Source: an uncultured SAR86 cluster bacterium
Lineage (GTDB): Bacteria; Pseudomonadota; Gammaproteobacteria; Magnimaribacterales; D2472
Length of the DNA: 64,000 bases
Assembly: GCA_902594005.1 (NCBI GenBank)
Contig: CACJKN010000001.1
Span: 17,700-81,699 of the forward strand
Direction: 5' to 3'
Of the stretch, positions 45,981 to 55,242 are shown piece after piece. A program made the translations under genes and the position numbers. How positions within the stretch are numbered: the first letter of the stretch is position 1; every line of letters begins with the position of its first letter. A model generated the notes under the pieces. It saw nothing but the letters and a program-made list of their open reading frames with translations. It had not been told where the DNA came from and did not search any database.

Positions 45981-46829
45981 TTAAAATGAGCCGCCTCTTA
46001 ATTTAGTATTTGGCGGCCCAAATATCAGCGATAAAGCTTCTTTCGCCGTTTTTGCTTTTCTAATATCTTTAAAGATTGCGCTCCACCCCATAAAGGTAAT
46101 CTTTACAGGATTAAATGTATTAACATTATTAACTAATCCATATTTGACCGGTGCTTTCTCAGGCTCAAATGTTCCGAACATCTTGTCCCAAATAATAAAA
46201 AGATTCCCATAATTTTTATCAATATACTCTTTATTAGCTCCATGATGGACTCTGTGATGAGAGGGTGTATTAAAAATAATTTCTAGTGGTCCAAGCTTGT
46301 CAACTATTTGGGTGTGTCCAACTACGCCCCAAAGTGTGCTTATAACTCCTGCAATAACAAGAATGGTTGGATCCATTCCTAGTAAAGGGAGTACTGCAAA
46401 AAAGGGAAGCTTTGACAGTGGCGCAAACCATGCCTGTCGGAGAGATACTGCAAAGTTCATTTCCTCACTGGAGTGGTGACTCATATGGATAGCCCACAGA
46501 AATCTTACTCTGTGTGAAAGCCTGTGATAAATATAAAAAACTAAATCTATCAACACAAAAGCTAACACCCACATAAGCCATAGAGGTATGAGATTAGCTA
46601 AATCTATAAATCTAAACTGGTAAAGGAAAATGTGAACTGCAAAAGATAGACCTTTTGCGGCTGATCCTATCAATATATTTCCAATAAGTAAGCCGGCAGT
46701 ACATAAAGTATCATCAAGCCTATAAAAGGACTTATTTGTAAGGGATGAAAACATTGCTTCCAAAGCAATCATTCCATAGATAATAGGAAGACCAATTGCG
46801 TAAACTTCTGCAACCGTTAGATTTGTCAT
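45981..46829 (-). CDS. Sterol desaturase / fatty-acid hydroxylase family (alkylglycerol monooxygenase-like)
   Basis: His boxes YIYHRLSH, WAIHMSHHSSE, NTPSHHRVHH; DKNYG...WDKMFGTF. Confidence 0.88.
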   Translation of the reverse strand: MTNLTVAEVYAIGLPIIYGMIALEAMFSSLTNKSFYRLDDTLCTAGLLIGNILIGSAAKGLSFAVHIFLYQFRFIDLANLIPLWLMWVLAFVLIDLVFYIYHRLSHRVRFLWAIHMSHHSSEEMNFAVSLRQAWFAPLSKLPFFAVLPLLGMDPTILVIAGVISTLWGVVGHTQIVDKLGPLEIIFNTPSHHRVHHGANKEYIDKNYGNLFIIWDKMFGTFEPEKAPVKYGLVNNVNTFNPVKITFMGWSAIFKDIRKAKTAKEALSLIFGPPNTKLRGGSF

Positions 46830-47395
46830 TTGGATTTTAACGCTTCGATATGCTCAACTAAAGATTGCAGCTCTGGTTTATTAGCTTTTATCTCATCCAT
46901 TGAAAGTCCTTGAAGCTCGTGCGGAAATACAAGCCACTGATCAGTCTCATGAATATGATAATCTGGAACTCTGTCAGTTTTATTTTTTCCTGGCTTGAAG
47001 TATGGTGTAGCAATTCTTATTTCGGGTGTGTTCTTTTTACAAGCTGACTTAAGGTCAGTTATTACTTTGTTAATAGACATGCCTGTGTCATAGACATCAT
47101 CAACAATTAAAAGCGAATCTTCTGATTCTAACTTTCTTATAACATAATTAAGCCCATATACTTGGACCTCATCCCTTCTTGAATCAATTCCCGAATAGTA
47201 TGAAGTTCTAATTGCAATATGATCGGAGGGGACACCAAGGAAATCTAGAAACTCTTGAACTGCTATGCCTATTGGAGCCCCGCCTCTCCAAACACCAATA
47301 ATATAGTTTGGTTTAAAACCGCTTTCGAAGATTTTCCAGGCTAGGTTATACGAGTCCTTTAATAATTGGTCTGCTTGGATAAAATGCTTTTCCAT
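46826..47395 (-). CDS. Type I phosphoribosyltransferase, xanthine/hypoxanthine-guanine PRT-like
   Basis: GVWRGG, PRPP-binding LIVDDVYDTG, WLVFPHE. Confidence 0.82.
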   Translation of the reverse strand: MEKHFIQADQLLKDSYNLAWKIFESGFKPNYIIGVWRGGAPIGIAVQEFLDFLGVPSDHIAIRTSYYSGIDSRRDEVQVYGLNYVIRKLESEDSLLIVDDVYDTGMSINKVITDLKSACKKNTPEIRIATPYFKPGKNKTDRVPDYHIHETDQWLVFPHELQGLSMDEIKANKPELQSLVEHIEALKSK

Positions 47396-47454
47396 AAAGC
47401 GTATATTACTCCAAACAGACCCAATATATAAACTAGCAGCGCTTAAATGCTTTA

Positions 47455-49794
47455 CTAGAAGCTATATCTTAACCTCGTCATAACTTGTCTTGGCGGAATA
47501 AGCTCGAGCCCCGTTGCAGCAACACCAAATACGTCTGTCATACTTGAATTCACGCCGCTTTCATCAGTTACATTAAGAACCATGAAGTCTACAGCTAGGC
47601 TGTCGCTAAAACCAATACTCGTTGTTAGATTGCCGATTGTATAAGCTTTTATGTCATCAACAATTGGGTTATTAGAGACGCGTTGCTGGAACTCTCCTCT
47701 TCTAACATATTGAGCTGTTGTGGTTAATGAATTTCCAGAAGGTAAATTAGTTTCATGTTTAATTAAAATGTCTGCGGTGAATTCAGGCGTTTTAGCTAAC
47801 TGATTTCCTCTGACATTCTCTCTTAGTCCATATCTTAAATCTTCTTGGCCAAAGAAATATTGATATGCATCTACGTTATCAAGAACCTCATAGTCAGAAG
47901 TCACTTCCGACTCCAAGAATGCTAAGTTCATATCTATACTTAGGGAGTCTGTTACAAATCCAGTAAATTCTATCTCTAAACCAGACATTTCAGATTCCGG
48001 TATATTCGCTACGCCTCCTCTATATGGATCTGGATCAGTAGCTTGAAACTGTAGATTTTCATAAGTATAAGAAAACGCCGCTAAATTCGCTCTAGCTTTT
48101 CCATCTGCAAAAGTAGATTTGAGTCCAAGCTCAACTGACTCTACTGTTTCACTTTCAAAAGTTGGAAATACTAGCGCAGGAGCAATGGGTCTGCCTGCAA
48201 TTGCATCTTCTTCTTCAGTGAATCCGAATGTTAAGTTACTTCCACCAGGTTTGAAGCCTCTTGCTAGGGCAACATAAAGCATTGTGTCCTCAGACAGATC
48301 AAACTCTCCTACAACTCTTGATGTAACCTCATCAGTCGTTCCTTCCTCTTGAAAGCTTTCAACGTTTAAAAAGTTTGTTACATCGGTTGTAAAGGTGTCT
48401 TCTGAATATCGAAGTCCTGAAACGATTCTGAATGTATCACTAACATAAAGTGTGGTTTGTCCATAAATAGAAAATGATTCTCTTCCTGGGTTAGCATCTG
48501 TGAAGAAGTCAACTTCTGCAGCTGGTCCAAAAATATCAAATCTTCCTGGAATGCCATAGTCATGGTCATAACAATAGCTTGGGTCAGCAAAAGATTCATC
48601 ACATAAATATTTTATTCTTCCATCCAAGTCATCATCTCTATAGCCTCTAATGACGTTCTCAATTTCATGGTCCATATAAAACATTCCTACGGTCCAATCC
48701 AATCTATCTTCAATAGGCTGATTAGAGATTAAATTTATTTCTAAGGTTGTTGTATCAACAAGTGAAGTTTCTGGTGTAAATTCAGCTCTTTGGTAGGTTG
48801 CGCCTGCTCCAAGGCCAGGTATAGATAAAACTGGATCTAAATAGTTATGTCTATCATTATCTCTAACAACCAACACATCATCTTCTTGCACACTGGCAAT
48901 TGCTTTTAAATTAGCAAAACCTAAATCAGATTCATATATAGCTGCTAGAACCCATGATGATAGTTCATGCTGGGAAATCGTATCTTGAGAAAGTTTTCTC
49001 ATTCCTGAAGTCTGATCATCGATACCTCTTATAGCAGCACCATTTCTATCAACTTTAAAGTATTGTCCAAACACTCTGAGGCTTGATGTGTCATTTAAAT
49101 TGAACATCCAGTCAGTTCTGAAACTTTTACTATTATCATCATCAAGATCTTGGCCTGTATAAATATTCTTTGTGAACCCGTCACGAGTTGATGAAGATAG
49201 AGAGAATCTAGTTGCGATCTTGTCATTCACAACAAAATTGTTTGAAGCACTAACTTTACGGAGATTATAGTCACCAAAAGTTACATTCATTCTTCCTGAG
49301 CCGCCATCCATAGAAGGTGCTTTACTTATAACATTTACAGCACCACCAGTTGAGTTTTGACCAAACAATGTCCCCTGAGGCCCTCTTAAAACCTCAATTC
49401 TTTCGACATCTAAAAAGTCTGTGCCAAGTGCAAAAGGTGAAGCTATAAAAACTCCATCCATATGAAATGCTACAGAAGGTGCAGCAATTGCATTCTGATT
49501 GGTTTCGTTACCGACTCCTCTAATTGAGATGATAGTCTTGTAGCCTTCATTTTTTGCTACAGTCACGCCTGGAACAATTGCACTCAAGTCTACAAAACTT
49601 GTAATGTTCTTTTCTTCAATGTCAGATTCTGTCAATGCAGTAACGGCTTGAGAAATATCTTGGAGGTTTTCAGAACGCTTTTCAGCTGTAACTACAACTT
49701 CCTCAATTTCCTGAGCTACTAAAGATAGGCCAAAAGAGCCAACAAATGAAGCTAGAACAATTTTTTTAAATAAAATATTTACATAATTTTTCAT
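47455..49794 (-). CDS. TonB-dependent outer-membrane receptor
   Basis: Signal peptide, TonB box IEEVVVTAEKR, plug ERIEVLRGPQGTLFGQN, C-terminal RYSF. Start ATG 49794 after a GGGGA SD. Confidence 0.95.
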   Translation of the reverse strand: MKNYVNILFKKIVLASFVGSFGLSLVAQEIEEVVVTAEKRSENLQDISQAVTALTESDIEEKNITSFVDLSAIVPGVTVAKNEGYKTIISIRGVGNETNQNAIAAPSVAFHMDGVFIASPFALGTDFLDVERIEVLRGPQGTLFGQNSTGGAVNVISKAPSMDGGSGRMNVTFGDYNLRKVSASNNFVVNDKIATRFSLSSSTRDGFTKNIYTGQDLDDDNSKSFRTDWMFNLNDTSSLRVFGQYFKVDRNGAAIRGIDDQTSGMRKLSQDTISQHELSSWVLAAIYESDLGFANLKAIASVQEDDVLVVRDNDRHNYLDPVLSIPGLGAGATYQRAEFTPETSLVDTTTLEINLISNQPIEDRLDWTVGMFYMDHEIENVIRGYRDDDLDGRIKYLCDESFADPSYCYDHDYGIPGRFDIFGPAAEVDFFTDANPGRESFSIYGQTTLYVSDTFRIVSGLRYSEDTFTTDVTNFLNVESFQEEGTTDEVTSRVVGEFDLSEDTMLYVALARGFKPGGSNLTFGFTEEEDAIAGRPIAPALVFPTFESETVESVELGLKSTFADGKARANLAAFSYTYENLQFQATDPDPYRGGVANIPESEMSGLEIEFTGFVTDSLSIDMNLAFLESEVTSDYEVLDNVDAYQYFFGQEDLRYGLRENVRGNQLAKTPEFTADILIKHETNLPSGNSLTTTAQYVRRGEFQQRVSNNPIVDDIKAYTIGNLTTSIGFSDSLAVDFMVLNVTDESGVNSSMTDVFGVAATGLELIPPRQVMTRLRYSF

Positions 49795-49873
49795 AAAATT
49801 TCCCCGTAAAGTTTTTTTATTTTGCAATTTGTCTGCAGGACAATTGAAGCTAAACTCGACCAGTTTAACGGTG

Positions 49874-49922
49874 GCGTTCCTTCGGTTTTCACCTACTTCC
49901 GTCTCCTAAGAGATGAACGATT
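49874..49922 (-). ncRNA. glnA-motif (glutamine-I) riboswitch aptamer, copy 2 (gene-proximal)
   Basis: Minus strand AAU-CGUUC-A-UCUC(UUAG)GAGA-CGGAAGUA-GGU(GAAA)ACC-GAAG-GAACG-C: P1/P2/P3 three-way junction with an AGUA/GAA E-loop, as in the glnA consensus. Confidence 0.88.
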
Positions 49923-49925
49923 AGC

Positions 49926-49974
49926 GCGTTCCTTCAGCTTTCGCTTACTTCCGACTCCGAAGAGTTGAACGATT
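49926..49974 (-). ncRNA. glnA-motif (glutamine-I) riboswitch aptamer, copy 1 (gene-distal)
   Basis: Minus strand AAU-CGUUC-A-ACUC(UUCG)GAGU-CGGAAGUA-AGC(GAAA)GCU-GAAG-GAACG-C. Stem differences from copy 2 are compensatory. Confidence 0.88.
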
Positions 49975-50164
49975 TTAACTCACTTACACTCAATCACTTG
50001 AGCTCCTTTTTAACCATGGAGATGGTGCAAATTAAATCACAATGTAAAATAATACTTTTTAAAAATTAAGTTAACAAGATAGAAATCAATATTTGAAGGC
50101 ATTTTTTGTTTTTTTTTGCATTAAAAACTAAATTAATGTCTTTAAAGCTGTAAAATTTATCAAA

Positions 50165-51454
50165 ATGCTAGAAAAAATATTCAAACTTGAATCAAATAAC
50201 ACCTCAATCGGTAAAGAGATCTTAGCTGGAGTTACCACATTTGTAACAATGGCATACATCATCTTTGTAAATCCGCAGATGATGGCTGTTAGTGGTATGG
50301 ATTTAGGTGCTAGTTTTGTAGGGACATGTCTTGCAGCATCTCTAGCCTGCATAATTATGGGTGTATATTCTAATTGGCCGGTAAGCTTGGCGCCCGGCAT
50401 GGGTCTAAATGCTTTTTTTACTTATACCGTTGTAGGTGAAATGGGATATTCTTGGGAAGTCGCTCTTGGTGCTGTTTTCTTGGCAGGGGTTTTGTTTTTT
50501 ATAATGAGTATTACCAGATTAAGAAGATGGATGCTTGATAGTATTCCTCTAAATCTTCGCATTGCTATGGGTGCTGGTGTAGGGCTATTTATTGGCTTTA
50601 TTGGTTTGAAAAACGGTGGATTGATTGTTTCTAATAATGCCACCTTCCTTAGTCTAGGAGACTTCACCAATATAGAAACATTATTGGCTGCCTTGGGTTT
50701 TCTTACAATTTGTTCTTTATCGGTCAGAAATATCCCAGGAGCTATTCTGATTGGTGTAATCCTGGTTACAGTATGCTCTATATTCCTTGATTTAATTGAG
50801 TTTGGTGGCTTAGTCTCTATGCCTCCCAGTGTTGCTCCAACTCTGATGAAAATGGATATCTTGGGTGCTTTAGATATTGCGATGCTTAGTGTGGTTATGT
50901 CTTTCCTTTTTGTTAATTTATTTGATACTGCGGGGACGCTGCTAGGTGTTGCTACAAGAGCAAAAATAACCGATGAATATGGTAATGCAAAGAACTTTGA
51001 TAAAGCTCTAAAAGCTGATAGCAGTTCTAGTATCTTTGGAACCTTTTTTGGGTGCTCTCCAGTAACAAGCTATGTTGAGAGTTCTGCTGGAGTTGAGGCT
51101 GGAGGTAGAACAGGATTAACAACTGTTGTTGTTGGGCTTTTATTTTTAGTTGCTATTTTCTTTTCACCATTAGCTGCAATTGTTCCAGCATATGCAACCG
51201 CTGGAGCCTTAATTTATGTTTCTATCCTAATGATGAGCGGTATGGAAAAACTTAATTGGTCTGATTCAACAGAGCTTTTACCAGCTCTGGTAATTATCGT
51301 AATGATTCCTCTCACCTTTTCAATTGCAAATGGGATTGCCCTCGGATTCTTGGCATATGTTGTGCTAAAGGTCTCTAATGGTGAAGTTAAAAATATTTCC
51401 TCTGGAGCTTGGTTCTTAACTGCTGTTTTTGTTTCAAAGTTTCTTTTTTTATAA
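50165..51454 (+). CDS. NCS2 / AzgA-type purine (adenine/guanine/hypoxanthine) permease
   Basis: EILAGVTTFVTMAYIIFVNP, LAPGMGLNAFF, FDTAGTL, TSYVESSAGVEAGGRTGLT, PLTFSIANGI. Confidence 0.92.
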   Translation: MLEKIFKLESNNTSIGKEILAGVTTFVTMAYIIFVNPQMMAVSGMDLGASFVGTCLAASLACIIMGVYSNWPVSLAPGMGLNAFFTYTVVGEMGYSWEVALGAVFLAGVLFFIMSITRLRRWMLDSIPLNLRIAMGAGVGLFIGFIGLKNGGLIVSNNATFLSLGDFTNIETLLAALGFLTICSLSVRNIPGAILIGVILVTVCSIFLDLIEFGGLVSMPPSVAPTLMKMDILGALDIAMLSVVMSFLFVNLFDTAGTLLGVATRAKITDEYGNAKNFDKALKADSSSSIFGTFFGCSPVTSYVESSAGVEAGGRTGLTTVVVGLLFLVAIFFSPLAAIVPAYATAGALIYVSILMMSGMEKLNWSDSTELLPALVIIVMIPLTFSIANGIALGFLAYVVLKVSNGEVKNISSGAWFLTAVFVSKFLFL

Positions 51455-54708: not shown

Positions 54709-55242
54709 TTAATCCTCCAAGTTACTTATTTTTTTAATGAATAGCTTTGCACCAAGCGAAACATTATCGACCCAATCATCCTTTGCTTCATTGTCAGCAT
54801 TATCAGAAATAAACTTAAAACATCTAAAATCAATATTTTTTAATTTGCATACTTTTGCGATGGCAAAGGCTTCCATATCAACGATATCTGTTTTTAGAGT
54901 TGGTGTGCTGGTGACGAACTTATCGCCAGTGCCGCATGTCACTCCCTCTCTTCCAAAGGTTATCTCGATATCTTCTTCAAATGGAGTTTGTCCCACCTCA
55001 AAACCAAGCGGTGAAGCATCCATATCTCTTTGAAAGAAGCTTGAAACCTCAACAAGTCCTGTTATTTTTTCATAAAGGGATCCGGCTGTTCCAAAATTTA
55101 TTATTTGTTTTGGTGAGTGTTTTTCTATTGCATTTAAAGTATTGAAGACGGCATTCACTTTACCAACGCCGATGTATTCTATTTTATGATCAGGGAGGTC
55201 AGATCTTTTAAGCTCATCTTCAATTGCAACCAAAATAAGCAT
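54709..55242 (-). CDS. Short MTA/SAH nucleosidase / purine nucleoside phosphorylase-family protein
   Basis: GVGKVNA, NFGTAG, QRDMDA, TGDKF, VDMEA, KFISDNA. Confidence 0.85.
   Translation of the reverse strand: MLILVAIEDELKRSDLPDHKIEYIGVGKVNAVFNTLNAIEKHSPKQIINFGTAGSLYEKITGLVEVSSFFQRDMDASPLGFEVGQTPFEEDIEITFGREGVTCGTGDKFVTSTPTLKTDIVDMEAFAIAKVCKLKNIDFRCFKFISDNADNEAKDDWVDNVSLGAKLFIKKISNLED

Follow-up and report, generated by a model that had tools for sequence, protein, structure and literature searches.

Type-1 glutamine riboswitches, as typified by the leader of Synechocystis gifB, are the closest described counterparts of an element that we have analysed in a 64-kb stretch of DNA from an uncultured SAR86 cluster bacterium (hereafter the window, meaning all 64,000 nucleotides (nt); its genome is designated G000). 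There, two glutamine aptamers in tandem precede a gene for a TonB-dependent receptor, which is followed by a gene for a purine-type phosphoribosyltransferase (PRT), and a gene for an AzgA-type purine permease diverges from the same intergenic region. Both aptamers match the full riboswitch model (RF01739) at nearly twice the gathering score. Tandem glutamine aptamers are known, with 157 doublets and four triplets given in the available text of one survey (PMC9481103), and the accessible portions of another link the riboswitch to glutamine synthetase, ammonium transporter and P-II genes in marine metagenomes (PMC2864571). For the marine type-1 copies linked to glnA, both the taxon and the effect or sign are left open in the available sections of Klahn et al. 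(2018; PMC6212724), and RF01739 is mentioned in passing within SAR86 deletions in an excerpt of PMC12379486. The copies described here differ in preceding an outer-membrane receptor and a purine PRT, genes that are not among the published associations in the partial texts compared, in residing in a gammaproteobacterium within a larger conserved cassette outside Rfam, and in having a sign that is probably opposite.

The GlnD/P-II/NtrB-NtrC/sigma-54 regulon resembles this system in its targets (glutamine synthetase, amtB and a nitrogen-scavenging uptake operon) and in its signal, glutamine. Relatives of the bacterium use that cascade at the same three operons, whereas here sensing is by RNA in cis on each mRNA and the protein components go undetected, as detailed below. 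In Bacillus subtilis the xpt-pbuX operon, led by a guanine riboswitch, likewise joins a purine PRT to inner-membrane purine uptake; its switch senses the purine, while the present one reports on nitrogen status, and the transporter under its control is a TonB-dependent receptor of the outer membrane. BtuB, SusC-like and DdbCD transporters share with this receptor the plug and 22-strand-type barrel domains, and five proteins of G000 match TonB_C over the cut-off, so that a TonB partner is encoded, but the receptor matches no curated equivalog. DdbCD is described in the available text of PMC12478041 as a SusCD-type pair for nucleic-acid fragments in Bacteroidota. Full-text literature searching, with sources available mostly as abstracts, returned no characterised TonB-dependent purine-base transporter and no description of this receptor, which agrees with the remark in an initial annotation of the stretch that no TonB receptor for free purines is well characterised; no report of sigma-54 loss in the SAR86 clade was among the matches listed from those partial sources.

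The aptamer class is already known; in its use here, a cis-acting RNA sensor of the same metabolite takes the place of a two-component and alternative-sigma cascade. On balance we think it probable, with some reserve, that the locus is a purine-acquisition module in a nitrogen-stress regulon, that its sigma-54 promoter was swapped for a sigma-70-type promoter and a tandem glutamine riboswitch, and that it is off at high glutamine.

Riboswitches and sigma-54-type motifs across the order

The two types of control are partitioned by genus among the 88 loci of the window's family (f1) that hold both the permease start and the receptor start. In the window's own genus (g1) the tandem riboswitch is present at 8/8 loci and the sigma-54 motif at none, even in relaxed form; a ninth congener with an assembled receptor start (G011, locus L001) has both aptamers at a contig end. 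In the other genera the riboswitch is found in 0/80 receptor leaders, and a sigma-54-type motif, a predicted promoter, occupies the short intergenic region, in the strict form TGGCAY-N5-TTGCW at 73 loci, relaxed at six and as a TGGCAA variant at one. This motif always lies on the receptor strand; the opposite strand gave 0/80 and shuffled sequences 2/8000. Searches of five sigma-54-type loci returned no other RNA families, even at E≤1. Genome-wide, the matches listed for the sigma-54 motif in g1 number 2–9 per genome and recur in apparent coding regions.

Loss of the corresponding proteins follows the same line. Neither rpoN nor a Sigma54_activat domain was detected in any of 11 g1 genomes, G000 included, whose assemblies are 65–93% complete; in the other nine genera they were found in 118 and 111 of 128 genomes, respectively, the latter always as exactly one match per genome. 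This sole activator of the relatives is NtrC (TIGR01818, 636.6 bits against a cut-off of 558.6), and its gene follows those for NtrB (PRK11073, 254.9 against 240) and a GlnII-type glutamine synthetase, with a sigma-54 motif upstream of the group. The glnII locus of g1 is syntenic, with flanking genes 42–67% and GlnII 92% identical, but ntrB and ntrC are missing, no remnant was found by tblastn, and two glutamine aptamers stand where the relatives have the sigma-54 motif. GlnD was found in G126 (568.5 bits against 519.4) and in neither of two g1 genomes (93% and 91% complete). As far as these assemblies show, genus g1 has lost sigma-54 and NtrB/NtrC, and apparently also GlnD, and the suggestion of the initial annotation that control runs through RNA rather than an Ntr protein cascade is supported by these absences together with the relatives' sigma-54 motif at the same position. 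The glutamine gating that it proposed for the whole purine path would apply to a part of it only: the aptamers are located 77–179 nt 5' of the receptor ATG, on the minus strand like the receptor itself and downstream of a sigma-70-like promoter, and therefore belong to the receptor leader and not to the permease mRNA. The riboswitch sits on the receptor-PRT transcript alone, and the divergent permease is not directly gated.

The genomes of g1 carry 2–7 aptamers each, against 0–3 (mostly 0–2) elsewhere in the family. Two precede the receptor-PRT operon, two precede glnII (one in G007), and three precede a Gcw_chp outer-membrane protein gene with amtB (two in G007, where glnK is added); glnII and amtB are textbook targets of NtrC. 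The three leaders have in common a sigma-70-like promoter, a 5' element (GCAUUUU or UGUGAUUU, then UUUGCAC), usually a CCAU-CUCC-AUGG...GGAG hairpin module and, 3' of the last aptamer, CCGUUAAAC-loop-GAGUUUAAC followed by UCCUGCAGA and AAAAUGC or AAAUUGCA. Both receptor aptamers of the window are letter-for-letter identical to amtB-leader aptamers 1 and 2 of congeners G002 and G003, and leaders have evidently exchanged sequence.

Full-length rpoN and RF01739 were compared across the order in 131 genomes at least 80% complete. The f1 genera other than g1 had full-length rpoN in 45/47 genomes and RF01739 in 19/47, and family f2 had them in 27/30 and 12/30. In g1 (including G000) the counts were 0/5 and 5/5, and in family f4 they were 0/20 and 19/20, with 1–5 aptamers per genome. 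In f4, glutamine synthetase genes (type-I or GlnII) have aptamers upstream within the same extended cassette, and aptamers also stand before Gcw_chp-amtB and an open reading frame (ORF) of 45 residues. Family f3 had no full-length rpoN, a C-terminal relic of about 80 residues in 11/29 genomes and RF01739 in 14/29. Loss of sigma-54 accompanies multiple glutamine switches in g1 and f4, but not in f3, and the cassette stands before the receptor in g1 only.

Several further arrangements were seen in this survey. The f3 frame (for example G140:C1:833391-833573) spans 78–95 residues and covers the last ~60 positions of the sigma-54 model, the RpoN box, at 38–48 bits; it is either a relic or a small stand-alone protein. 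In genus g18 of f3 (L212, L213), which has no full-length rpoN, a single aptamer lies directly before gltB, the gene for the glutamate synthase large subunit. In genera g7, g8 and g9 (L022–L028, L031) a single aptamer lies 32–51 nt before a gene of 476–483 codons matching CP_ATPgrasp_2 (~490 bits), and this association with a circularly permuted ATP-grasp protein is absent from the available portions of the glutamine-riboswitch papers compared. Genus g3 (L067, L068, L069, L073; for example G013:C2:229122-229230) has a tandem glutamine riboswitch and a 61-residue ORF past the permease, ~1.5 kb from its sigma-54-driven receptor; since this riboswitch adjoins the cluster, aptamers were already neighbours of the cluster before one came to control the receptor. 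Inverted repeats like NtrC sites (TGCAC-N-GTGCA type) occur upstream of the receptor in G838 (L202:7908-8140), a gammaproteobacterium outside the order, and in family f2 (L182, G247), and TGCACCAT...ATGGT beside the promoter of the g1 leader is possibly a remnant of such a repeat.

A broader proposal, which we hold tentatively and think rather less likely to be true than false, is that in at least two sigma-54-less lineages, g1 and f4, the GlnD/NtrB/NtrC/sigma-54 cascade has been wholly replaced by one modular RNA device, comprising an aptamer array, a closing helix and an inverter platform, which was recombined from operon to operon; in g1 it would have captured an operon formerly under NtrC that encodes a TonB-dependent transporter of a new class, for purine bases.

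The receptor-PRT-permease unit

In the species collection the receptor has its relatives among uncultured marine gammaproteobacteria, one of them SCGC AAA076-P13, which we take to be a SAR86 single-cell genome. At E≤1e-100, orthologs were found in 98/139 genomes of the family and in all 26 of high quality. The family set comprised 96 loci (95 fetched and the window), counted only where the DNA extends far enough; in 87/87 the receptor is followed by the PRT gene, and in 87/87 the AzgA permease gene diverges from it. The triad persists although the receptor drifts to 45% identity and the outer flanks differ between genera. In an order sample of 201 genomes, orthologs at 54–59% identity were found in families f2 and f3, where 18/18 fetched loci keep the triad, and in 0/30 genomes of f4.

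Beyond the order, one genome (G509) among 400 scored class-wide matches at E≤1e-60; its order has only two genomes in the collection. Its receptor is the reciprocal best hit of the window's receptor (E 6e-102 and 8.4e-102; 31–34% identical). Downstream of it, and in the same direction, come genes for an NCS2 permease and a pair of 2OG-Fe(II) oxygenases and then XdhA/XdhB/XdhC-like genes; a LysR regulator and a 191-residue PRT diverge from the receptor, and this PRT aligns end to end with that of the window (19% identity, E 2e-7). The oxygenase genes of G509 (L197:5514-7559; DIOX_N, 2OG-FeII_Oxy) stand in tandem between the NCS2 permease gene and xdhA, and the same interval holds a 170-residue ORF without a Pfam match. 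A phylum-wide sample of 401 genomes, queried with the G509 receptor, gained two further genomes. In G838 a sigma-54-type motif precedes a receptor 46.5% identical and then, in the same direction, an AzgA permease 63% identical, with two PRTs adjoining (54% and 49% identical). The other homolog, in G1026, is 28% identical and has an isochorismatase, a TauD-family protein and a Rieske oxygenase as neighbours. Two of the three homologs outside the order are accordingly found amid purine genes, and the genes seen near members of the receptor's subfamily include purine permeases, purine PRTs and, in one case, xanthine dehydrogenase. Linkage of receptor orthologs to purine genes, which the initial annotation had named as a check on its purine-scavenging proposal, was found at the family, f2, f3, G838 and G509 loci.

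The coordinates of the locus are collected in Table 1. The layout that had been described from the sequence, with tandem aptamers in a 370-nt gap between the receptor and permease start codons, was confirmed by ORFs, Pfam and Rfam. The receptor start is placed at ATG 49794, since this codon and its GGGG Shine-Dalgarno sequence are kept in eight congeners and TTG 49827 is not. Plug (PF07715, 63.7 bits, cut-off 23.9) and TonB_dep_Rec_b-barrel (PF00593, 104.4 bits, cut-off 27) domains were matched, and by eye the translation has a hydrophobic leader ending in ...LVAQE, followed by EEVVVTA, and a C-terminal ...RYSF, presumably a signal peptide, a TonB-box-like stretch and a terminal aromatic residue. 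No curated NCBIfam equivalog was exceeded: the best was TIGR01783 (106.7 bits against 223.5), BtuB (TIGR01779) gave 72.9 against 599.7, and the curated models that come closest, each with a cut-off far above the score reached, describe generic receptor subfamilies for siderophores, haem and B12.

Table 1. Features of the receptor locus in window coordinates
Feature	Position	Strand	Evidence
Fatty-acid-hydroxylase-family gene	45981..46829	-	Pfam; start overlaps PRT stop by 4 nt; outside the conserved triad
PRT gene, purine-type, 189 residues, second in receptor operon	46826..47395	-	Pribosyltran 44.1 bits (Pfam)
TonB-dependent receptor, 779 residues from conserved ATG	47455..49794	-	Plug and barrel domains
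TonB-dependent receptor, mechanical ORF extending to TTG at 49827	47455..49827	-	ORF list
Receptor Shine-Dalgarno sequence GGGG	49802..49805	-	Read in the sequence; invariant across congener alignment
Closing helix, 3' strand (UCCU-GCAGA-C-AAAUUGCA)	49823..49840	-	Predicted; pairs with 50026-50041 and AGGA of the 5' module
Hairpin GUUAAACU-loop-AGUUUAGC, immediately 3' of aptamer 2	49849..49869	-	Conserved in all leaders, changes being G-U-compatible
Glutamine aptamer 2 (RF01739)	49871..49921	-	65.5 bits, E 2.9e-12, full model 1-53/53
Glutamine aptamer 1 (RF01739)	49923..49973	-	66.2 bits, E 1.8e-12, full model 1-53/53
5' leader module: CCAU-CUCC-AUGG hairpin and downstream GGAG, then CUCAA/UUGAG hairpin	49990..50025	-	
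Closing helix, 5' strand (UGUGAUUU-AA-UUUGCA), at or near mRNA 5' end	50026..50041	-	Predicted, RNAfold and RNAalifold
Sigma-70-like promoter TTGTTA-17-TATTAT	50049..50077	-	Consensus scan 9/12; hexamers invariant in 8/8 congener leaders
AzgA-type purine permease, 429 residues, divergent, own promoter	50165..51454	+	Xan_ur_permease 156.1 bits

The PRT had been called xanthine/hypoxanthine-type. It is purine-type by PF00156 and by its nearest solved relatives, the archaeal purine PRT 1vdm (E 4.1e-14) and Sulfolobus GpT-2 and GpT-1, but falls under the NCBIfam cut-offs for XPRT (PRK09177, 34.9 against 138 bits) and HGPRT (TIGR01203, 28.6 against 150 bits); the class reached is the superfamily, plus similarity to archaeal purine PRTs, and goes no further. 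A -10 box of its own, which the initial annotation had thought possible, was not recovered, as a consensus scan gave no promoter-like or terminator-like site in the 59-nt spacer between receptor and PRT. The only solved relatives of the permease are the plant adenine/guanine permeases AZG1 (E 5.2e-65) and AZG2 (E 3.6e-48); its AzgA-type label (NCS2) holds, and its substrate is a prediction.

A nucleosidase-like gene that had been counted to the path is present as noted (54709-55242, minus strand; PNP_UDP_1; PRK05634 98.6 bits, under the cut-off of 129), at 3.3 kb from the permease, but five unrelated genes lie between it and the cluster and it is not part of the conserved unit. By tblastn no copy was found in any fetched relative's locus; most of these reach ~2 kb past the triad, and the result consequently says little within the genus. 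The fatty-acid-hydroxylase-family gene has a weak OlsE-like match (79 bits against 475). Its overlap with the PRT gene is restricted to the two closest loci, L001 and L002, and the gene may be co-transcribed on the riboswitch-controlled mRNA in g1.

Leader architecture and a candidate switch

In an Rfam scan of the whole window (RF01739 gathering cut-off 35 bits) the two aptamers were the sole matches at the gathering threshold, and they are the only RF01739 copies in the 988,607-bp, 79%-complete assembly. Sigma-70-like scan hits in the region were fewer than expected from shuffles (10 against 18.5), so that the promoter call rests on conservation. The 5' leader module is kept in 7/8 congener receptor leaders, being deleted in G006, and is common to the glnII leaders and those of family f4. 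The modules flanking the aptamers match no Rfam family, bar weak Glutamine-II echoes of the same aptamers. Within the 5' module, the CCAU(A)CUCCAUGG-N7-GGAG element (window 49990-50025, minus strand) resembles an H-type pseudoknot, one arm of which is similar to a Shine-Dalgarno sequence; it recurs beside glutamine aptamers in the leaders of g1 and f4 and is doubled in the f4 amtB leaders (L204, L211).

In RNAfold and RNAalifold predictions the 5' element pairs with the 3' element and AGGA with UCCU, enclosing the whole aptamer array. Duplexes of cognate 5' and 3' strands have a mean energy of -12.4 kcal/mol, compared with -8.7 when strands of different operons are paired and -5.1 (standard deviation 2.2) for shuffles, over 15 distinct leaders that represent perhaps five independent lineages. 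Most pairs of the closing helix are invariant in the alignment, and one shows U-A to A-U changes. In the RNAalifold consensus, GAGUUAAAAUCG, immediately 5' of aptamer 1, pairs with CGAGUUUAACUU, and the 3' arm of the hairpin that follows aptamer 2 can take up this alternative pairing, which would break the P1 helix of aptamer 1 and compete with the local GUUAAAC/GUUUAAC hairpin.

These predicted pairings suggest a two-state refolding mechanism. At low glutamine a long helical rod would keep UCCU on the decoy AGGA and leave the true Shine-Dalgarno sequence free. At high glutamine both P1 helices would form, the local hairpin would capture GUUUAAC and the rod would loosen, so that UCCU could cover the Shine-Dalgarno sequence; in the amtB leader a downstream terminator-like hairpin could form instead. 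Reading the expression platform from thermodynamics alone was also tried, by RNAfold with P1 constraints on five leaders, and did not make it readable.

Assembled contigs of RNA libraries from four studies cover the receptor, and are set down here without being used as evidence. Contigs X1 (49788-49902) and X6 (49777-49902) join aptamer 2 to the receptor start, and in the bin 49980-50153 three of four runs have no contig cover, X2 showing a trace (1.72). Summed depth over the aptamers (49806-49979) is 148–2530 in three runs, against 13–170 over the receptor body, and is not raised in X6 (24.9); contig joints show that glnII and amtB leader paralogs are mixed into the aptamer depth.

Purine salvage and competing readings

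Gene content was checked in G000, three congeners and G126, all five being incomplete assemblies. The purF gene was found in 5/5, whereas MoCoBD_1, A_deaminase and guanine deaminase over its cut-off were each found in 0/5, and the PRT linked to the receptor is the sole 6-oxopurine-PRT-like protein among the PRT-domain proteins found. With purF present and catabolic genes not found, the organism makes purines and apparently cannot burn them. Judged from this gene content, the module would suit salvage that spares glutamine-derived nitrogen, and not mineralisation.

In the scheme that we favour, the receptor would be co-transcribed with the Gpt-like purine PRT, with the AzgA-type permease of the inner membrane alongside. 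In most relatives the receptor-PRT pair would be driven by the sigma-54 promoter, with NtrC the genomes' only sigma-54 activator; in g1 a sigma-70-type promoter and the tandem glutamine cassette would take the place of that promoter, the same cassette standing at glnII and amtB. When glutamine is low the leader would permit expression, and scarce dissolved purine bases would cross the outer membrane, be taken up by the permease and be converted to nucleotides by the PRT, which would spare de novo synthesis with its cost in glutamine. At high glutamine, binding at either aptamer would refold the leader and turn the operon off.

A number of points weigh against this scheme. Free purines are small enough to cross porins, no curated TonB-receptor equivalog indicates the ligand, and the G1026 homolog, from a genome flagged as unpublished, has no purine gene nearby. 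The gene absences in g1 come from incomplete assemblies, that of GlnD rests on two genomes, and P-II is patchy, being found in one of four g1 genomes (G006) besides the glnK of the G007 amtB operon. The f2 and f3 triad loci have a sigma-54 motif in 1/18 and no riboswitch, and any nitrogen control there is putative. As to mechanism, the long-range helices are mostly invariant, so that covariation support is thin; in five leaders the Shine-Dalgarno accessibility predicted by RNAfold did not shift consistently between runs with P1 forced, free and blocked; and no terminator-like element was found in the receptor leader. Finally, the experimentally tested glutamine riboswitches all switch expression on with glutamine in the available text of Klahn et al. 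(2018; PMC6212724), and in that of Weinberg et al. (2010; PMC2864571) the motif is read as lowering expression under nitrogen depletion.

These precedents would extend to SAR86 if the cassette were an on-switch as in cyanobacteria, with receptor-PRT, glnII and amtB expressed at plentiful glutamine, for example to couple nucleotide supply to growth. The gifB and Prochlorococcus leaders behave in this way in the available text (PMC6212724), the reading in the consulted part of PMC2864571 agrees, and in other SAR86 genera aptamers lie 2–51 nt before small ORFs and ATP-grasp genes, where a CAUCU/AGAUG hairpin over the Shine-Dalgarno sequence would fit an on-switch. Unlike that direct type, the g1 and f4 cassettes place a further 80–200 nt of conserved structure between the aptamer and the start codon, and this is compatible with an inverted response. 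Moreover, each of the three g1 operons has the cassette in place of, or at the site of, the sigma-54 promoters predicted in relatives, and these could fire only with NtrC, the sole activator, acting under nitrogen limitation; negative regulation of glnA is itself termed 'reasonable' in the accessible sections of Klahn et al. (PMC6212724). We regard an on-switch as unlikely.

The nature of the ligand is a separate matter. The same anatomy and nitrogen control would be expected if the receptor imported a larger nucleic-acid-derived compound, such as a nucleoside, nucleotide, dinucleotide or short oligonucleotide, that is trimmed in the periplasm to a base for the AzgA permease. Substrates that are too large for porins, or too scarce, are the typical cargo of TonB-dependent transporters. 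A predicted transporter of this class for DNA-derived products, DdbCD, is described for Bacteroides in the available text of PMC12478041, and the nucleosidase-like gene is not far from the permease. However, the conserved unit holds no nuclease, nucleotidase or nucleosidase, the flanks vary between genera, the nucleosidase was found in no fetched relative's locus, and the G509 cluster links the receptor directly to a base permease and xanthine dehydrogenase; we consider a larger substrate unlikely. A receptor unrelated to purines, for a siderophore, a vitamin or another nitrogen compound, with its neighbours a frozen accident, would accord with its best curated matches, the generic siderophore, haem and B12 subfamilies that it falls far under, and with the non-purine neighbours of the G1026 homolog. 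Against this, the triad has outlasted receptor divergence to 45% identity and the change of flanks, across three families and another order, a homolog at 31–34% identity sits inside the xanthine dehydrogenase/NCS2 cluster of G509, and neither genes nor riboswitches related to iron or cobalamin turned up at any locus, Rfam giving nothing else. Such a receptor is very improbable.

The locus presents a clean natural case in which RNA has taken over from a protein cascade, one gene at a time, in the course of genome streamlining. It also names at least one organism group that carries the marine glutamine riboswitches seen before glnA, and explains why they are there, the taxon and sign being what Klahn et al. 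(2018) had left open. If the cascade has indeed been wholly replaced, the nitrogen regulon of an abundant marine heterotroph would be entirely RNA-sensed. The receptor and its homologs define a candidate subfamily of purine TonB receptors, and the locus suggests that, for an abundant ocean heterotroph, dissolved purines are a resource that spares nitrogen.

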